NCBI GenBank assembly: GCA_010093995.1
Contig: ML992505.1
Coordinates: 1,532,670 to 1,596,669 of the forward strand
DNA from: Elsinoe ampelina
Taxonomy: Eukaryota
Length of the DNA stretch: 64,000 bases
Direction: 5' to 3'
Notes under the pieces: generated by a model
Told to the model about the DNA's origin: nothing
The model's input: only the letters and a program-made list of their open reading frames with translations
Database searches by the model: none
Shown: positions 21,179 through 51,814 of the stretch, piece after piece
Layout: each line of letters starts with the position of its first letter
How positions within the stretch are numbered: position 1 is the first letter of the stretch
Program-made: the position numbers and the translations under genes

Positions 21179-23669
21179 ATGGTCGCATCTTTGGTCTAGG
21201 TGGCCATGGCAGCCGGTCTCGCCATGGCAGTCCCGGTCAAAGAGCATGATATCGAAAAGCGTCAGCTTGGTCTTTGTAAGTTGAACCTCCCTCCATCGAC
21301 TTTCATGTCTGACTCTCCTCTAGCAGCATTGCCCGTCGTTGGTGGCCTCCTCAATCCAGCACCTGCAGCCCCAGCAGCCAGCAGTGGCTTCATCTCTGTC
21401 GTTCAGCTCGCTCCCAACGTCTTCACCTCGTTCCGTGTCATCACTCAGGAGTTCGTCGTAGGTCACACACTCCTGCTTGAAGAGATGGAGACTGACAAAT
21501 ATCCAGTATACCGTCCCAGGCGCCGCCACTGTCTCCTCGGCGGCTGGTGCAGCTGCACCGGCCCCTACACCTGCTCCGGTCCCAGCGGTCGCTACTGCTA
21601 CTCCAGCGGCTGATTCGGGTCTCCTTGGTCTCGGCGGTCTTGTTGGAGGTGTCGTCTCTGCAGTCACCAATGCAGTTCCTCTCGACCTCGAAGCCACTGT
21701 CGCTGTTTCGGCTCCCATCTTGGACGTAGCCGCCACTGTCTGCCTCGGCATCTTGGTGGATGGAGTCTGCCAGGAGACTACAGTCCAGCCTGCTCCTGGT
21801 GCAACTCCAGCTGGCGGCGACGGACTTCTCGGTCTTCCCATTACGTTGCCTGGTATCGAAGTTCAGGCTACTGTTGCAGCCACTGTTGCTCCCAGTGATC
21901 TCGGCGTTCCTCTTCCACCCATCGATGTCAACGCTGGTCTTTGCTTGGGCATCTTCACCAACGGGGTCTGCTACACTTCTGATCCAGCAGCAGTCCCACA
22001 ACCCACAGCTGCCGGTCCTCTCGGTCTTCCAGGCATTGAGCTCTCAGCGTCGCTCTGCATTGGCATCTTCCGCGATGGTCTCTGCTTCTCCGCTCTCGAC
22101 GCTGCAACTTCCACCCTTGTCAATCTCCTGGTCACCACTGACCCAGCAGCTGTTGCAGCCATTCCAACCGAAGTTCTTGCCAGTGTCACCGCCATCGCTT
22201 CTCCTGCAGTTGCTGCTATCACCGGAGCTGCAGCCGTCACTTCCGCCGCAGGAGCCGTCACGTCCATCATTCCCAATGCAGGCGGGGTCTTCACATCAAC
22301 ATCCTTGATCACCATCCCCTTCGAAGAGACCATCCAAGGTCTGTCCACCATCTTCGGTGCCAATGGGGCTGTCTCTCAAGTCCTCAACGCCGCTGGCTCG
22401 GTCGTCTCGGTCGCTACAGGAGTCGTTGGTGGTGCTGGCTCCGTCGTCTCCGCCGCTACTGGTGCCGCCGGTAGCATTCTTCCTCAAGTCACATCAGCAG
22501 CTGGATCTGTCCTCTCTGAAGCCACGGGTGCTGTCGGAAGCATCCTTCCACAAGTCACATCCGCAGCCGGATCTCTTGTCTCAGGTGCTACTGGTACAGC
22601 CGGCAGTCTCGTCTCTGGTGCATTGTCCGGAGTCGACTCTCTGGCCACTGAAGCAACTGGGGCTGTCGGATCTCTTGCTGCAGGCGCCACCGGTCTTGTC
22701 GGCAGTGTTGCGTCTCCAGTCCTGTCCGGTGTCGGATCGATCGCGACCGGTATCCTTGGTGGTGCTGGCGCGGCCAGTCCCTCAGCAACTGCTTCCGGTT
22801 CTCCATCATCATTCGACCCTGCTCTGACTGCCTCTACATCCGCCGGTGCAGTCGCTTCCTCGGGCACTTCCCTCCAAAGTGGTGCCGCTGCTACAACCGC
22901 CTCTGCAATCCCAAGCGTCTTTGCTGGCCTCAGCTCTGCCACTGGATCAGTCTCGGGCAGCGCTGCAGGGGCCTCTTCCATCGGTGCTGCTAGTGGATCT
23001 GGTACATCTGGCTCAGCCACAGGATCCTCAGCCGGAGGTCTCGCCACTGGTACTGCGAGCAACTTCGACCCAGCTCTATCCGCCTCAACCTCAGCCGGCG
23101 GATCATCAGCCTTCAGTGCCTCTGGCAGTGGTGCTTCTGCTTTCTCTTCCAGCGGATCCGGGTCGTCCTTCAGCACCTCTGTCGTCTCTAGTGCAGTTTT
23201 CACTTCGGCCGGCAGTGCATTCCAGTCTGTCAGCAGCTCCGGCTCGTTTGTGTCAATTTCCAGCAACGGTGCTTCTAATGCCAACGGCGCTTCCAATGCC
23301 AACAGCGGCAGCTCCGGTCAAGGATCTTCATCGTCTGGCTCGTCCGGACAGACTGGATCTCAAGCTGGCTCCGGAGCTCAGGTTACTGGCGCGTCCTCTG
23401 CTGTTGGCAGTGCTGCATCTGCATCTCCAGCTTCAACCTTCGGCACCTTCGTCTTCGACCCTCTTTCGCCATCTCAGACCAGCTCGGTTGTCGTCACTCC
23501 CGGTTCCGGCGGTGTCGCTGTCCCAAGCACTCGTCTGTCCACCAATGGCACTTCCGGTCTACCACTCGGCGTTCTCCCATTCACTGGTGAGGCAACGACT
23601 ACTACGTCTCGAGACAACTCCTTCCCGGCTATGGTCGTCGGCATCGTCGCCGCCATGATCATGTTTTGA
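21179..23669 (+). CDS. Large Ser/Ala/Gly-rich, probably GPI-anchored surface protein; in-frame TAG at codon 7
   Basis: ATG 21179 in strong context (tcaccATGg) gives MVASLV*VAMAAGLAMAVPVKEHDIEKR (signal peptide plus Kex2-type KR). Introns ~21276-21323 and ~21458-21506. Three C-x8-C motifs. C-terminal PFTGEA...hydrophobic tail. Confidence 0.75.
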
Positions 23670-31187: not shown

Positions 31188-32825
31188 ATGAGCAACACCG
31201 ATTTTCTCGGTCGGGCGATCGAGACGGTGAAGAAGGCGATAGAGATGGACACGGCGGGCGATTATGAAAAGGCATATCAGCAATATTACCAGGCTTGTAT
31301 GGAGGCGCCTGGACGAAATGAGGGGCGGAGACTGACATGTCGCAGTGGAGCTGTTCATGCTTGCGCTGAAATGTAGGAGAGGCCACCTTGAAGCACACAC
31401 GTCGTAAGGCTAATATTCACCAGGGGAGAAGAGCGCCAAGTCAAAGGAGATGATTCGGGCAAAGGCAGCAGAGTACATGGAGCGGGCAGAGAAGCTGAAG
31501 AACCACTTGGCGGAGCAAGAGAATGGGAATCGGAAAAAGCCTGCGGCGATGGGAGCTAATGGCAAGGCATCGAATGGAGCAGGCAAGGGCGCAAAGTGGG
31601 TTGTCTACCTGAGATCTACATCTGCACCACTGACCCATCAAGGGGCGAAGACGACGACGACAACGACCCCGAGTCTAAGAAGCTCCGCGGCGCCCTAGCC
31701 GGCGCCATCCTCACAGACAAGCCCAACATCAAATGGGAAGACGTAGCGGGTCTGGACCAAGCGAAAGAAGCACTGAAAGAAGCAGTCATATTACCGATCA
31801 AATTCCCCCACCTCTTCACCGGCAAACGACAACCATGGAAAGGCATCCTGCTCTACGGCCCCCCTGGTACAGGTAAGAGTTACCTCGCCAAAGCCGTCGC
31901 GACCGAAGCAAACTCCACCTTCTTCTCCGTCAGCTCCTCGGACCTCGTCAGCAAATGGATGGGAGAATCCGAACGGTACCTCCCTTTGTCCCCACTCTCT
32001 CCTCCCCACTCCTAACTCCACTTCCCAGATTAGTCAAACAACTCTTCAACATGGCCCGCGAAAACAAGCCCTCGATCATCTTCATCGACGAAATCGACGC
32101 CCTATGCGGGCCCCGAGGCGAAGGCGAATCCGAAGCCTCGCGCCGCATCAAAACCGAGCTCCTGGTCCAAATGGACGGCGTAGGCCGCGACTCCCGGGGC
32201 GTCCTCATCCTCGGCGCGACCAACATCCCCTGGCAACTCGACGCGGCCATCCGTCGCCGCTTCCAGCGCCGCGTCCATATCTCGTTGCCGGACATGCCGG
32301 CGCGGGTGAAGATGTTTGAGCTCGCTGTGGGGAGCACGCCGTGTGAGTTGAAGGGGGATGATTTTAGGACCCTGGCGCAGTTGAGTGAGGGGTATTCCGG
32401 GAGTGATATCAGTATTGCGGTGCAGGATGCGTTGATGCAGCCTGTGAGGAAGATTCAGACGGCGACGCATTACAAGAAGGTCTGACTTCCCTCCTATCCC
32501 CTGCCGCTTTCCCGCCCTTTTCCTTCCTTTGCCCCCCATCGTCCCTTCTCCCCCCCTCCCCATCCACACATGGCCTCGGGCACACAGTACTGACAGGCAA
32601 AAGGTCCAAGTCGACAACACGGAAAAACTCACCCCGTGTTCGCCGGGCGACGCAGGAGCAATGGAGATGACCTGGGTCGACGTGGAGACGGAGAAACTCC
32701 TCGAGCCGCCCCTCCAGGTCAAGGATTTCGTAAAGGCGATCAAGGCGAGTCGACCGACCGTGAGCCAGGAGGATCTGAAGCGGAGCGCCGAGTGGACGCA
32801 GGAGTTTGGGAGTGAGGGTGCGTAG
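31188..32825 (+). CDS. VPS4: AAA ATPase Vps4 (MIT + AAA + Vps4_C), 6 exons
   Basis: [14 protein letters not shown] domain, [32 protein letters not shown]. Five GT-AG introns. Confidence 0.96.
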
Positions 32826-33000
32826 AGGACGGGACGAGATCGGGAAGGGACGTAGGGAGGGGGGATTCAGGGAGTGGGAGGGAGGTGTGCAGTCGGATAG
32901 TCCGTTGGGCATGGGGAATGGGGGAGGTCCCAAGGCGATGTCCGGGCGAGAGGAGAAGGTAGCAGGGCTGCTCGACCATCGGGTAAGAGAAGTGGACGGT
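31800..33000. other. Double skew-switch domain in VPS4
   Basis: C-rich ~31800-32280, G-rich 32300-32480, C-rich 32485-32580 (intron), G-rich 32800-33000. Confidence 0.7.
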
Positions 33001-33326
33001 GATCGGGAATGACCACCATCAGACACTTGTGGTCCGAGGCTGACGGATAGAGGCATCACGCTGGGACTGCACTTGGGGATATCATGGATGAGGACGAGTG
33101 ACAAGGGCAGAGTCCTGGTGGATCAAAGCGACAGCAACTCTAGATCTTTCTTGACGAACTGAAATGCGAAAGAGCAAAACCATGGCATGTTGTCACTCTC
33201 TGCCTGCACACGTGTCTGGTGACCTGGCTGTTTGACGTAGCTCAACAAAGACATGGTATGGTGTTCCCACTCGCTTGGGTCCCAGTCTTATCATGCGGAG
33301 GCTAGAAGGCAGACCCGCTATCAATT

Positions 33327-36300
33327 TCACCTCGTCTCGCTAAAGCTATGCAAGTCATTACCCCTCCTGCTCTTCCCCATCTGTTGATCGACCTCGCCCT
33401 GCACAATGCCCACCGTCCGGACCTCTACTGGATCCTCCGCTCGCCTTCCAGCCCGTCTCACATCCTGTCGATCCACGAACTTCTCCGACTGCTCTTCTCG
33501 TCCATGTCCAATGTCCGTAAGGACGATACTGTACCCAGTCAAATCCGCTCTCAGTCCCATGATCTCCTCCCGCAGCGTCGAGATCTCGTCTCGCAGAGCT
33601 TTGCAGCACTCGCACACCCCGGATTTGACACTGGCCGTGTGTTGTCGTTCGTCAACTTGTGTTCCGTCGAGCGAGAGCCTATCCGGAGGGTGACGCCCGG
33701 GACGATAGGCGTCTTGATGCACAGATGTGTCGGCCATTTCCGAAAAGTGGCTCTTGCCGTGCGGAGTCAGATGCTGCGTCGGCGGTGTTAGATGGCCCGT
33801 CTGCTCGGGCGAGGTGTCGTCTTCGTAGTATCTGATGATGCGCAGCGGACTAGGAGTCAAGCCAGAGGACATTGACGTCCAATCGAGGCGCTCTTGCTTG
33901 CCGCTGTTTCTTGCCATAGTGTCCACGTCTCTCGTCAAAGGTACGACACTAACCTCTGATGCTCGCTTGATGGCATCAACAATCGCTTCAGTCAGGCCAT
34001 CGATTTGACCTTCTGTGAACTTTGACTTCCTGGGTACAGCTCGAGGGGACTGTACCTGCAAGTCAGTGGGTGGTGCGGCGTCGGGCTGATGCATGTCTTT
34101 CCTGCTTGACCGGCGGCGTACTATGCCATTTCTACGTTTGTCCAACAGGGGTAGCCCTTCGGACAGCGCAGCCCAATTTGTCTCGCCCTGTCTTTTGGTA
34201 GGTCGACCGGAATGGGCCATGGCATGTTGTAGCCTTCTTGACTCCTCAGCTGTGGTTCCGCTGCTCTCGAATTCTCCCGGAATATGAGTATGATCTGCTG
34301 CGGTCTTCATGGCAGGATGGAACTTTGACATAGGGCTCTTCTCTAGACCATGTGGTCTTTTCTGCGCTCGATTCTGCATCCCCTTCTTTGTCTTCTGGTC
34401 ATCGACTATGCGAGGTGAAGCAGGAGCTAGACTCGATCCTCTCGGACATAGCTGTCGGATGGCTTTCGATGGTGGACACAAGTTGCCGTTCTCGTCAAGT
34501 AAATCCCCATCCTGCCATTCAGAAGCGGTGTATGCTTCTTCACTCGTTGTGCTCATAGGAAAGTTGCCGGGCAGTCTTGGCATGCGTTCGGTGCTTGACT
34601 TCTGCTGGAAATAGTCCTCAGTTGCACCGTTCAGACTGAGTGGTCGCTTTGGGACGATCGCAGGTACCTCACTTGGCTGACCAGTCGACTTCTTCGACGC
34701 GGCATTGATATGTGTTCGCTTTCGCGAACCTTGACGTTCAGGTTGAGGTGGTGTAATCATGATCTCGGGGCCATTTGGTGGAGGCGGAGGCGGTCTGATA
34801 GGAGCAGGCAGTGGCATTTTTGCAGGGTCAGATGGCATGAAGGACGAGGAAGTAATAGCCTTCAAGGTTGTCTTTGGACGGTCTCGGCGAAGAGACTCCA
34901 GCAACCCACCAGGCTTTCGTGTCTGCGGATAGGTAGGGGTGTCGTAGTAGATGGTCTCAGGGCTGATGATACCGAGCGCGGGCTTTTTGACACTGTCCTT
35001 CCTCGGCACATTGGCTAGAAGGTCTGATTGAGCCATTGTATCAATACGACGGGTTGTTGGCTGGCCCGTTGGTAGCGTGCTTGTCGCTTTCTCGGTCTCG
35101 GAGCCTGACGTGACCCACTCCTCTGCTAGGCTGTCCGTCGATGCACCAGTCAATGTGGTAGCGTCGAATTGTCGGTCGTTGATCTTTCCAGCGCTCCGTC
35201 TTCGAAGACCACTTGCTGCCGTCCGGTTCATGTAGGCAGTGAAGGAAGGACGCTGCTGACTACGTCTCTTCGGTTTTGCTGGTGAAGGATGAGCATGCCG
35301 CCTTGTCTGCGTCGAGACCCGATCATGCGTTTGAAAGGGGATTGGAGATGTTGTAGATACTTCTGATCTGACGAGCTGTATTGAGGACTGCTCTTGATGA
35401 CTGCTATCGAGAGTGTGATCACTACTGCTTGTGATCATGTAGTCTGGTGTGATGAAGACGGTCTTGTCCTGTCTTAATCTTGTCGGCAGGTTGCGATCAG
35501 TGGCGGTCGGAGCATTCAGATACGACAGGGTTAGATTGGGGTCCAATTCGGCTGGTTCAGAAGCCTGGCTGGAAGTGCTGACATGGGAGGAATATTGGTT
35601 CGCAACATCATAGTAGCCCTGTCGGTCGACAAAGGTATTGCTGCGTATTCTAGGCCGAGGCGGCGATCTCATCGGACTGTGTGCATCGTACCTTCGTTGA
35701 CCATCGCTCCTCCCTTGCCTGCCAGGTGAAAAGAAATCAGCAAAATCGCGGCCACCTCCCACCTGGAGACGAGCTGGCTGGTCAGAAGATGGTGGGCTGT
35801 GAACGACTGTGCCTGCAATATCGTGATCGTACAGTTCTCCAATTTCCTCCCTACTGCTCCTGGTCTCCGGCATTGTAAGAGCAGCCACAACTCCCGAGCT
35901 CCTTCTCTTGGACGGTCTTCGCGGAATGATGTCTGCGGCGGTGTCGCTTTGCTTCGGTGGTGGAACGTTCTCAATTTCCTCTCCAGACTCCGTCATGAAT
36001 ACAGATTCGTGCTTCAGTCGGCGGGGTACCATGTCAAACTCCCCAATGGCGTTTGGCGTTACACCTTGAACCCACTCCAGACCGATGATGGGAGAGTCGA
36101 CATCCACAGCTGTGTCATGTATCTGTCCACCAAGAGTATCGTAGAGGACGACCCTTCCTCGGTCCATGCCCACCGCTATGACGCAGCTACCTTCGGACCG
36201 CTAGTCCTTCTGCTGCTCTCGCTGCGAGTTCGGCTGATCTGTCTTGACCCTGGATGGCCCGATCACCTTGCGGCTTTGCAGGACAGCTACAGAGGTGGCA

Positions 36301-37298
36301 TGAGCATGAAGGTTCCATGACTGAAGAATCACCCCATTGTTGGTAAAGTCGACAACGTGGCATTGACCATCACCTCCTACGCTCACTGCCGTTGAAAGAG
36401 TGCCTGGTACGAAGGCAGCTGCAGAGACTCCAACACCACGATCGTGTACCGAAGACTCTGACTGATCATACTCGCTGGTTGTGTAGCTGTAGCCTGACCC
36501 TACCGAGCTTTTATTCGTACTCCGATGCAACCGCTTAAATGAAGAGATTTCTCCTGCCTGACCCTCCATGTCCAGTGAAGAGTTGACGTCCATCCTAACT
36601 CCGTTCTTCCTTGCCATCTTCGTTGCATTGTATGCTGCAAGTGTCCCGTCCTTGAATCCAAGCAAGAAGACGTCTGGCCGGTCAGGATGAAAAGCTGCCA
36701 CGACAACAGGCGTGGTGCTCACACTCGGTTCAAGCTTGTGCGCAGGTGTACCAAGATTGACGTTCTGGATGTAGGTAACGGGCGGATTCTCGGATGCGCT
36801 GATCAGGAGTTGAGCATTTGCATTGACAGCGAGAACGGTCGGAGGAGAAGGATGCTCCTCGCCAGGTCGAGACATGCGTGCTTCCCGGACCGAGTAGCAT
36901 TGGATGGCACCGGCTAGAGTGGTGCTGAGGAAGAGTGACTTTGCATCTGACGTGTACTCCAGAAGTCGAGAATGACCTTCGGGACTGTTCAAACCCCAAC
37001 TCTCTTCTCTGTTCCGTTTACAGTCATGCAGAACAACGACTTGGCTATTAGCTACTGCTAGGACCTGGCTGCCATCTTTGCTTGCTTTGGCTGCGAGAAT
37101 TCCTTGTCGGGACGAACTGAAGATCTTGTGTACTCCTAGGGTATCCCAGGCATGGATTGCTCCAGGAGTGGTGATCAGTAGGTGGTTGTTATGAGGTATT
37201 CGGTAGATTGACTTGGTTGCTTGACTTTGCTTGCGGTGTTTCGAGTTTGATGAGCTGATGCTGGGATGTATTCGTTGCGGTCTCGAAGACACTGGCAT
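33327..37298 (-). CDS. WD40-repeat protein with long disordered tail and C-terminal coiled coil; single in-frame TAG at 36203-36201
   Basis: ORFs 36201..37298 and 33327..36173 are in the same frame: ...QQKD*RSEGSCVIAVGMDRGRVVLYD continues a WD40 blade. WD-like motifs AAFHPDRPDVFLLGFKDGTLAAY and AVSVGGDGQCHVVDF. Confidence 0.75.
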
Positions 37299-37947
37299 CG
37301 CTAAGATGCAGGATAGGTATGCTGATCAAGAATTGTGCATTCGTCTCGAGGAATACGATCTCATCCATCAAGCGAGCCGAGAGAGATGGTTGGGAATACA
37401 GGTGGATAATGCTGTGAGCAGTCTGACCCAGCAGTCTGGTTCCTTCAATTGCACTTGCCATGTCTACCTTAAAGATATCAGCTGACTGCAGCCAGGGCAG
37501 ATCAGCGACATTGGTACAAGGCATGTCATTCTTGCAAAGTATACAACTAAGGACTGACTGAATTCGAAAGCAAAAGAACAAAAAGCAATCTTCCCAAATC
37601 ATACTGTAAGCCATCAATGCATCCTAGCCTCTGCCATTCACTTGCACCTCGCCGTCAATTCCTCAACGATAGAAAACGTCTTCATCCGGCACTACTCATC
37701 TTCTGCTCCCTTGCCTCTTCTCTCGCAACAGATTCCATTCATGTAACAGTTCAGCCAGTGCAAAGTACCCCGAATCTGCGGCAGTGTGCCCGTTGATCTG
37801 TCCGACCGGCTGACGCTTGTCCTCGTCCTCGACGCGATTGAACGCCACGATAGATGATTGCTTTTGGCAGCTTCGACAGGTCGAATGGAAATGCTGGTAG
37901 GGCGAAGAGTGTTTTGAAATGCTTGAATCCTATGCAAACCAGGTCAA

Positions 37948-50940: not shown

Positions 50941-51814
50941 AGAAGGTGCCCGGGCAGTTGAGAGTCGCGGTCAGGTTGAGCCAGGGGCCGAATCCGACTT
51001 GTGGTGGTGTACGGCGGTAGCTGTATTGACCAGACTGGAGGATGGCGCCACGGAATGGTGGGCTGGAGTCGCGGGGAAAGCTGGTCAGGAGGGCATCGAC
51101 GGAGAAGGCGCCGGCAGATTCACCGAAGATAGTGACTTTCTTTGGGTCGCCACCGAAGGCGGCAATGTTGCGTTGAACCCAGTCAAGAGCAGCTCGCTGG
51201 TCAACGAAGCCCAGATTGCGGCCTGTAGCATTGAGCTCGGGCGAGGCAGGGAAGCCAAAGACTAGGATATGTTAGATCTGCCCGCAGGGATCGGGGGTGT
51301 GATGCTGACCGTTGGTGCGGTAGTTGGTCGTGACTACAATGACGTCTTCGTAGGAAGCAAAGTAGCTACCATCGTATGCATCTTGGCCAGCATTGCCAAA
51401 CTGCAGAGATCCGCCGTAGATCCAGAAGAGCACCGATCGAGCATTATGCGGCGAGACTGGCGAGTCTGGGGCAAAGACGTTAAGGTACAAGCAGTCCTCG
51501 CTCTCGGGTGGTGGAGGGTTGTTAAAGGCGCGCTCTGCTGTCGGCGTCAAGAACTGCTGAACGCAAGCAGCGCTGAACTGGGTCGCCTGACGAGGTGCTG
51601 AGCCATATGGGCTCTCCCTGACTGGTGGAGAGAATCGTTCTGGCGGCGACTGCGCGAAGGGAACACCGAGGAACTTGTTGACAGCCGCGGTGGCTGTTGG
51701 CAGCTGAGTCTTGACACCAATGAGCACACCCGAATCAATGGTAGCTGTAGGTGCATCTTGAGCAGAGACCGCCGCAATGAGCGAGCAGGCCGCGAGAAAG
51801 GTAGAAGCCAACAT
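50099..51814 (-). CDS. Secreted carboxylesterase type B (lipase/cholinesterase-like), 2 exons
   Basis: Signal peptide, FLGVPFA, SEDCLYLNV, WIYGG, NYRTNVFGF, FGGDPKKVTIFGESAG, YHASEI. Intron 51310-51262. Confidence 0.92.

Follow-up and report, generated by a model that had tools for sequence, protein, structure and literature searches.

How does a reading frame stay intact for hundreds of codons behind an in-frame stop codon? This question is raised by a gene for a WD40 protein in Elsinoe ampelina, the grapevine anthracnose fungus, which is located in a 64,000-nucleotide stretch of contig ML992505.1 (assembly GCA_010093995.1, positions 1,532,670 to 1,596,669; hereafter the window, in whose numbering all coordinates are given). 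The gene lies on the minus strand, where it starts with an ATG at 37298-37296 and continues for 365 sense codons, the last of them for Asp, up to position 36204 (open reading frame (ORF) 1, 36204-37298, encoding the first six blades of a predicted propeller). A TAG follows at 36203-36201, with its A at 36202 and in the context gac TAG cgg tcc, and past it the same frame is open for another 957 codons (ORF 2, 33330-36200) until the gene's closing TGA at 33329-33327, so that the peptide spanning the stop reads ...QQKD*RSEGSCVIAVGMDRGRVVLYD. ORF 2 encodes the seventh blade, a long low-complexity region and a C-terminal part with a Cys-x-x-Cys motif and a coiled-coil-like tail. When recomputed, the arrangement described by an earlier, sequence-only reading of this DNA, namely one frame with two ORFs parted only by a TAG (gac TAG cgg; QQKD*), was borne out, while its length of 948 residues for the downstream ORF was not, as this ORF spans 957 codons when measured between the two stops and 946 when counted from its first ATG. 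Since the neighbouring VPS4-like gene itself ends in TAG, this codon is an ordinary terminator here, and codon reassignment therefore does not explain the locus. Same-frame pairs of ORFs of at least 120 codons each that are split by a single stop occurred 11 times in the 64-kb window (four with TAG, four with TGA and three with TAA), and the pair in the WD40 gene was by far the longest of them.

Our main new result is that the place of this stop is shared across the genus, as judged from the proteins encoded by its relatives. In the other Elsinoe species the stop place was read from protein ORFs or gene models, and codon identity was read in E. ampelina DNA only. In all five sequences, representing four of four species (E. 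ampelina, E. batatas, E. fawcettii and E. australis), the N-terminal ORF or model ended at the same Asp-stop column. Indeed, the alignment of these five sequences comprised 365 columns and every one of them ended in the last column, with the tails ...QQKD, ...EQKD, ...GQMD, ...GQVD and ...GQVD. Gln362 and Asp365 were invariant within an otherwise variable loop, and such a constant Gln-x-Asp directly ahead of the stop suggests that the local context is under selection, in agreement with either readthrough or editing. One E. ampelina model (P0048) was 100% identical to the upstream ORF and ended exactly at the stop, a 946-residue entry (P0021) proved to be the window's own downstream ORF, and identity between ORF 1 and the N-terminal models reached 77-90% for E. 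fawcettii and E. batatas. The latter species carries an N-terminal model of 364 and a C-terminal model of 946 amino acids, located on contigs of equal length, E. fawcettii has two adjoining models of 363 and 923 amino acids with consecutive accessions and locus tags, and the E. australis cluster at 90% contained raw 362-amino-acid ORFs from two lineages together with downstream ORFs of 889 and 845 amino acids. In all four species the downstream frame was thus open for 845-957 codons. A gene tree with SH-aLRT support, built from 12 rows of our choosing, grouped E. ampelina with E. batatas (100), joined E. fawcettii to them (99) and placed these three as sister to a pair of E. australis and S. 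murrayae (81). Judging from this 12-row tree, stop-bearing species stand on both sides of the deepest Elsinoe split, and the path from E. ampelina to E. australis amounts to 0.84 substitutions per protein site.

These data bear directly on the possibility that the gene was recently broken and is now decaying as a pseudogene, or that the stop arose through faulty sequencing or assembly. Genes admittedly die most often through a single nonsense codon. However, the same letters were found in a contig from another sample and study (see below), the stop holds the same place in four species that are up to 0.84 substitutions per protein site apart, and hundreds of codons are still open behind it in each of them. 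We therefore give decay or error next to no credence. The doubt about the base itself, which the sequence-only reading had raised, is settled in the same way: given the identity of the independent contig over the site and the stop place shared within Elsinoe, the TAG is not a sequencing or assembly error.

What does the stop interrupt? We used the read-through translation with an X at the stop as a query (P0001) against 7999 proteins, with a cut-off of E <= 0.001. The query matched 45 of them, with a best E of 2.2e-203, and every named one belonged to the Dothideomycetes. As this read-through protein aligned with full-length Dothideomycete orthologues on either side of the stop, the two-ORF arrangement is not due to chance. 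The distant orthologues (from Aureobasidium, Hortaea, Dothistroma and others) were single proteins of approximately 850-1030 residues, which likewise aligned across both sides. Naming the protein beyond its fold proved difficult. In Pfam, the N-terminal part returned only sub-threshold propeller matches (the best being PF24814, with an E of 7.6e-05 and 22.3 bits against a cut-off of 320) and the C-terminal 946 residues matched no family, while among the orthologues only the WD40 repeat PF00400 in P0034 cleared its cut-off (31 versus 27 bits). The protein can hence be named only as an uncharacterised WD40 protein. P0034 itself consists of an N-terminal propeller, a long disordered middle and a short helical C-terminal part. 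A structure search with this orthologue (Protein Atlas) returned its own WD40 cluster and NEDD1-type rows with TM scores of 0.32-0.35; these lie below 0.5 and are too low to name a family, so that we rejected the NEDD1-type label and keep it as a lead only.

An AlphaFold2 model of the first 470 residues, computed with the stop read as W and an alignment of 31 orthologues, showed a propeller (pTM 0.74) with 28 strands forming seven four-stranded blades, and 24 of these strands precede the stop while four follow it. A Foldseek search with this model gave at least 500 matches at E <= 0.001, with mLST8, seven-bladed designer proteins, WDR5 and G-beta at the top (8era_C, an mLST8, with an E of 2.1e-15 and a TM score by target of 0.80; 7bid, a seven-bladed designer protein, with a TM score of 0.83). 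The model places the stop within a loop (residues 345-368, 36195-36266, minus strand, pLDDT < 50) that is disordered and varies in length, with 30-45 residues and a variable sequence in distant orthologues. Blade 7 follows as residues 372-411 (36066-36185, minus strand), with strands at 372-378, 382-387, 392-397 and 406-411 and a pLDDT of about 94, and its hhAVG and GLEW motifs were kept in all aligned orthologues. The stop is thus predicted to cut a seven-bladed WD40 propeller between blades 6 and 7, and in the model blade 7 is needed to close it. The sequence-only reading had taken the residues after the stop for the remaining strands of a WD40 blade; four confident blade-7 strands do follow, and the stop itself lies in the disordered loop between two blades and not in a beta-strand.

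To judge from the relatives, the ancestral gene was uninterrupted and had no intron at this place. A metagenome scan yielded ten relative loci that were 47-54% identical, none of them from Elsinoe, and in four of the four examined (L002, L004, L007 and L009) a single ORF of 853-1030 codons crossed the loop. The shorter annotated models of other Dothideomycetes were likewise continuous through the loop, whereas the models of S. murrayae and Myriangium duriaei skip the loop and the blade-7 region. One further protein, P0051 (369 amino acids, Dothideomycetidae sp.), was considered as a second split gene and rejected, as it continues across the loop and has its end past the first strand of blade 7. 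In the comparison of orthologues proposed along with the original observation, the Elsinoe species thus share the stop place and more distant relatives read through it.

Could the TAG be removed by splicing? The runs compared for this purpose (X3-X6) were all available as assembled contigs, which drop rare or minor variants, and none of them is recorded as RNA. Run X3 differs in both sample and study from the probable origin of the assembly, and its growth condition is unspecified. It contains processed transcripts, because in its contig of the VPS4-like neighbour three GT..AG introns were removed. A 3513-nucleotide contig from this run (32892-36404, no strand assigned) was colinear with the window, without any joint or differing letter. 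It bridges the TAG with 201 nucleotides upstream and 3309 nucleotides downstream and carries an A at 36202. In run X3 the dominant RNA form, the one that was assembled, therefore keeps both the TAG and the candidate intron. In runs X4-X6 the TAG was not covered, and pieces were found over the downstream part only. With respect to depth, the X3 contigs over the upstream ORF (36418-36952) reached 2.5 and 6.2 as compared to 63 over the downstream ORF, with 37146-37366 uncovered. This drop could stem from a transcript that starts internally, from 3' bias or from degradation of the full-length mRNA, and as contig depth cannot rank parts of a gene, we used it neither for nor against an internal transcript start.

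Two in-frame GT..AG pairs ending at the TAG had been pointed out previously as potential introns without a branch site, and both exist as described: a 66-nucleotide candidate (36201-36266, minus strand) and a nested one of 48 nucleotides (36248-36201), neither of which contains a CTRAY branch motif. We rejected them on account of this lack and of the colinear X3 contig. Extending the search to all in-frame GT/GC..AG candidates of 36-300 nucleotides that span the TAG, we found the motif in 0 of 87. Given the colinear contig and the absence of a branch motif from all of these candidates, a constitutive intron that removes the TAG is unlikely. A weak or conditional intron might still drop the TAG in a minor or stage-specific isoform, either through one of the 48- and 66-nucleotide candidates or through a mini-intron of the type annotated in E. 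australis. The presence of the in-frame pairs would allow for this, the Val codon that provides the GT of the 48-nucleotide candidate is kept in all four species, E. australis has been annotated twice, independently, with an intron across the stop, and a rare isoform could be missed in contigs. Nevertheless, whereas three of three RNA-confirmed introns of the neighbouring gene have a CTRAC near their 3' end, CTRAY was absent from every TAG-spanning candidate. Moreover, the 5' sites are poor (GTGATC and GTCAAG) and the candidate sequence is purine-rich, the GT of the 66-nucleotide candidate could not be encoded elsewhere, where its Val codon is replaced by Met, Ser or Leu, and the 48-nucleotide candidate (5' site GTCAAG) would measure only 45 nucleotides in the other Elsinoe species. 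X3 was also colinear over the site even though the neighbouring gene was fully spliced in the same run, and relatives read the loop as plain coding sequence. Taken together, we consider a conditional intron highly improbable.

If the stop is kept in the mRNA, are the codons behind it translated, and from which start? When E. ampelina is compared with E. australis, identity amounts to 56-58% over residues 367-421, a segment reaching from the stop to the conserved Met that follows; the part of the propeller that precedes the loop scores 74% and the tail 51%. The first ATG past the stop, Met378, lies 11 codons downstream (36165-36167, minus strand, context GGGCATGG) and serves as the start of the public models of the C-terminal half. 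Its place is occupied by Met in E. ampelina, E. batatas and E. fawcettii, by Leu or Thr in E. australis, and by Arg, Thr or Leu in all other aligned orthologues. The first blade-7 strand is still encoded in the 11 codons that separate Met378 from the stop, and it reads GSCVIAVG in E. ampelina as compared to GSCIFAVG in E. australis and hhAVG in all distant orthologues. In E. australis the next Met (in MMPRRL) comes only after blade 7; thus, without a Met between the stop and blade 7, the blade cannot be reached from a downstream AUG in this species. As blade 7 is nonetheless conserved there, the codons after the stop are probably translated. We infer from this pattern that ribosomes would pass the stop, or that the stop would be removed from some of the mRNAs.

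The same region allows gene fission to be weighed, whereby the full transcript would yield a six-blade fragment and a separate C-terminal protein would start at Met378, probably by means of a shorter, internally started transcript; the open propeller might then receive its blade 7 in trans. Open six-bladed propellers that are completed by strands of a partner are known from Sec13 with Nup145C or Sec31, and this combination of a six-bladed open propeller and a partner blade is what fission would need. In contrast to the Sec13 systems, the two Elsinoe parts stem from one ancestral gene, and the E. australis blade has no AUG of its own. Fission would be in line with the good context (GGGCATGG) of the ATG 11 codons past the stop in three of the four species (E. 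ampelina, E. batatas and E. fawcettii), and the public annotations of these three species model two genes. What argues against it is that E. australis lacks an ATG from the stop to the end of blade 7 and conserves blade 7 all the same, and that the 11 codons before Met378 are still conserved as a blade-7 strand, which would be surprising for codons that had gone without translation since before these species diverged. In addition, translation from Met378 would leave out this first strand, and a transcript that begins upstream of the TAG would have six out-of-frame ATGs in the interval from 36404 to Met378. We therefore judge fission to be distinctly unlikely, and note that it is not exclusive of low-level readthrough.

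Among the means of getting past a retained stop, restorative A-to-I editing has been put forward for this site, in which an adenosine deaminase would turn UAG into UIG (read as Trp) in a stage-specific manner, for example during ascostroma development, as in the premature stop codon (PSC) genes of Fusarium graminearum. Stage-gated production of the full-length protein would then be expected. TAG is the only stop that a single A-to-I change can open. Fungal editing prefers U at -1 and A or G at +1 and +3, occurs in hairpin loops and often concerns UAG (PMC11156358); the preferences quoted in the sequence-only reading (U at -1, purines at +1 and +3) agree with this source, and the site matches them with U at -1, G at +1 and G at +3. 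The U at -1 and the G at +1 are, however, automatic for a UAG, so that only the G at +3 is informative. The A of the stop lies in the loop of a predicted RNA hairpin, GGAC[UAGCG]GUCC (36195-36207, minus strand), and the residues before the stop (Lys, Met or Val, then Asp) could preserve the 5' arm of the stem in the four species, as deduced from protein sequences only. Against this, a comparable loop position was found for 107 of 1161 A (9.2%), 18 of 128 UA (14%) and 4 of 34 UAG triplets (12%) of this transcript, which makes the hairpin an approximately 1-in-8 to 1-in-10 coincidence, and the fold z-scores were -0.57 and -1.06, neither of them significant.

A premature stop that is shared throughout a clade, with intact sequence on both sides, is also the pattern of PSC genes (PMC10776026), of which approximately 70 are given for F. 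graminearum in PMC11156358 and 71 are described in PMC10776026. The Elsinoe gene resembles such genes (PUK1, FgAMA1) in its in-frame TAG within an intact conserved gene, in the retention of the stop across relatives, in its uninterrupted outgroup orthologues, in the U at -1 and the purines at +1 and +3, and in the position of the A in a predicted hairpin loop. It differs from them in belonging to the Dothideomycetes, a class without reported mRNA editing, in the A that was read in the one contig, and in the location of the site in a variable loop, where no ancestral Trp is visible; the TAG of PSC genes is often derived from codons other than TGG (PMC10776026). As regards taxonomic range, two reviews, PMC11156358 among them, call the distribution of editing within the Pezizomycotina open, and pseudothecium formers are named for examination. 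On the other hand, no mRNA editing in Dothideomycetes was found in the accessible parts of the literature searched, and editing is given as not found in Aspergillus nidulans or Botrytis cinerea (PMC11156358). The fungal mRNA-editing machinery is described as a Sordariomycetes innovation, with the required Ame1-Tad3 interaction reportedly having arisen in that class and an independent origin being proposed for Pyronema (PMC11087585). Furthermore, the sole transcript-derived contig over the site reads A, with the restriction that minor variants drop out of contigs, and knowledge of the E. ampelina sexual stage is described as poor (PMC8295512). Overall, the TAG rather than TGA and the loop position raise the odds of editing, while the taxonomic prior lowers them, and we regard this route as rather unlikely.

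Translational readthrough is the most likely route past the stop, and one that we favour tentatively, as a possibility short of even chances. The ancestral gene would have encoded an N-terminal seven-bladed WD40 propeller followed by a long disordered region and a short, coiled-coil-like C-terminal tail, and the Elsinoe lineage would have acquired, and retained, an in-frame stop in the loop before blade 7. Normal termination would yield a 365-residue product with six blades. On the same unspliced mRNA, decoding of the UAG as sense by a near-cognate tRNA at UAG-C would yield a full-length protein of approximately 1,322 residues. As in Drosophila kelch, this long isoform would be the minor and the short one the major product, and selection on the long isoform would preserve blade 7 along with the 950 codons downstream. 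The machinery for readthrough is universal, a conserved stop followed by conserved in-frame coding sequence is the signature that is used to find readthrough genes, and C at +4 is the leakiest neighbour of a stop.

A close parallel is kelch itself, where developmentally regulated readthrough joins two long ORFs (PMC4132726). Both genes have one conserved stop between two long ORFs in the same frame and a conserved downstream ORF, and in both a short major and a long minor product are expected. Unlike kelch, which has a UGA and a stimulatory downstream structure, the Elsinoe gene has UAG-CGG and no significant structure, its long product is predicted only, and its stop cuts a folded domain, so that the short product would be an incomplete propeller. 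With regard to sequence context, CGG after the stop is listed as a readthrough context for UGA, and the motifs for UAG are CARYYA and CARNBA (PMC4132726). UAG-CARYYA (of the tobacco mosaic virus type) and UAG-CARNBA (of yeast) share with the Elsinoe site the C after UAG, whereas the Elsinoe CGGUCC fails motif positions two and six.

Several points weigh against readthrough. The 3' hexamer CGGUCC fits neither CARYYA nor CARNBA (PMC4132726), nor does the site fit UGA-CUAG, and only the C at +4 agrees. The 104 nucleotides from the stop fold at -34 kcal/mol with a z-score of -0.72, so that no structure stands out. Given the motif mismatch and the lack of an outstanding downstream structure, readthrough efficiency could be at background level. 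With 2.9 kb between the stop and the poly(A) site, the mRNA should be exposed to nonsense-mediated decay. Moreover, editing is the better fit for a stop that is TAG and not TGA and whose A sits in a predicted hairpin loop, separate translation would agree with Met378 and its good start context in three species, the identity of the stop codon is visible in E. ampelina alone of the four species, and the case for translation past the stop is drawn from conservation. A literature search on Elsinoe and stop codon readthrough found no reports. Of the original suggestion of editing or readthrough, what stands is a real stop that needs decoding, being conserved in the genus, open on both sides, kept in RNA and without a credible intron, with readthrough and editing as the leading candidate routes past it.

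Some observations on the remainder of the gene and on its surroundings accompany these results. E. ampelina and E. batatas carry around 30 extra residues before the ...NDL(H/Y)SFSETR C-terminal tail (33330-33560), an addition that is not present in E. fawcettii, E. australis or S. murrayae; since the X3 contig is colinear there, this stretch is coding sequence and not an intron. The neighbouring VPS4-like AAA ATPase gene (31424-32833, plus strand) has introns of 47, 53 and 124 nucleotides, which are spliced in contigs and each of which contains CTRAC. At its first intron, runs X4-X6 were joined differently (31591 to 31643, with four other letters) and deviated at several bases, probably as a result of strain variation. 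The ten other ORF pairs in the window that are split by a single stop, including those with stops at 22306-22308, 22825-22827 and 51272-51274, probably comprise some short in-frame introns, an example of which is likely to be the stop at 51272-51274, which sits within a CTAAC motif.

How the stop has been handled in public gene models matters for the use of these genomes. In E. ampelina, E. batatas and E. fawcettii the locus is modelled as two genes. In E. australis, a model of 1255 amino acids follows the raw ORF for 359 residues, leaves out QVD together with the stop and a few codons, and continues from SCIFAVG; this mini-intron is an annotation device that bridges the stop, and we saw nothing to support it as real. 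In S. murrayae and Myriangium the locus is one gene, and the region is skipped. As a consequence of these three incompatible models, orthology tables and gene counts of these crop pathogens are inconsistent at the locus. Separately, the public N-terminal model of E. ampelina (272 amino acids) joins 'MAA' to ...REESWGL and lacks the first 90-odd residues common to the ORF and its orthologues, so that it is probably truncated at its 5' end.

Beyond annotation, a stop that is fixed at one place throughout a genus, followed by approximately 950 codons under selection, is the comparative signature of recoding, and to our knowledge few such cases of a conserved stop are documented in fungi outside the editing systems of Fusarium and Neurospora. 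The locus thus offers a single concrete site at which to ask whether Dothideomycetes have restorative mRNA editing. That Elsinoe (Dothideomycetes, Myriangiales) performs gated A-to-I editing, with its genus-wide UAG as a restorative site of the PSC type, seems unlikely to us on balance. If true, this would be the first such site outside the Sordariomycetes and Pezizomycetes, and it would imply either a third origin of fungal mRNA editing or an origin much older than is now thought.

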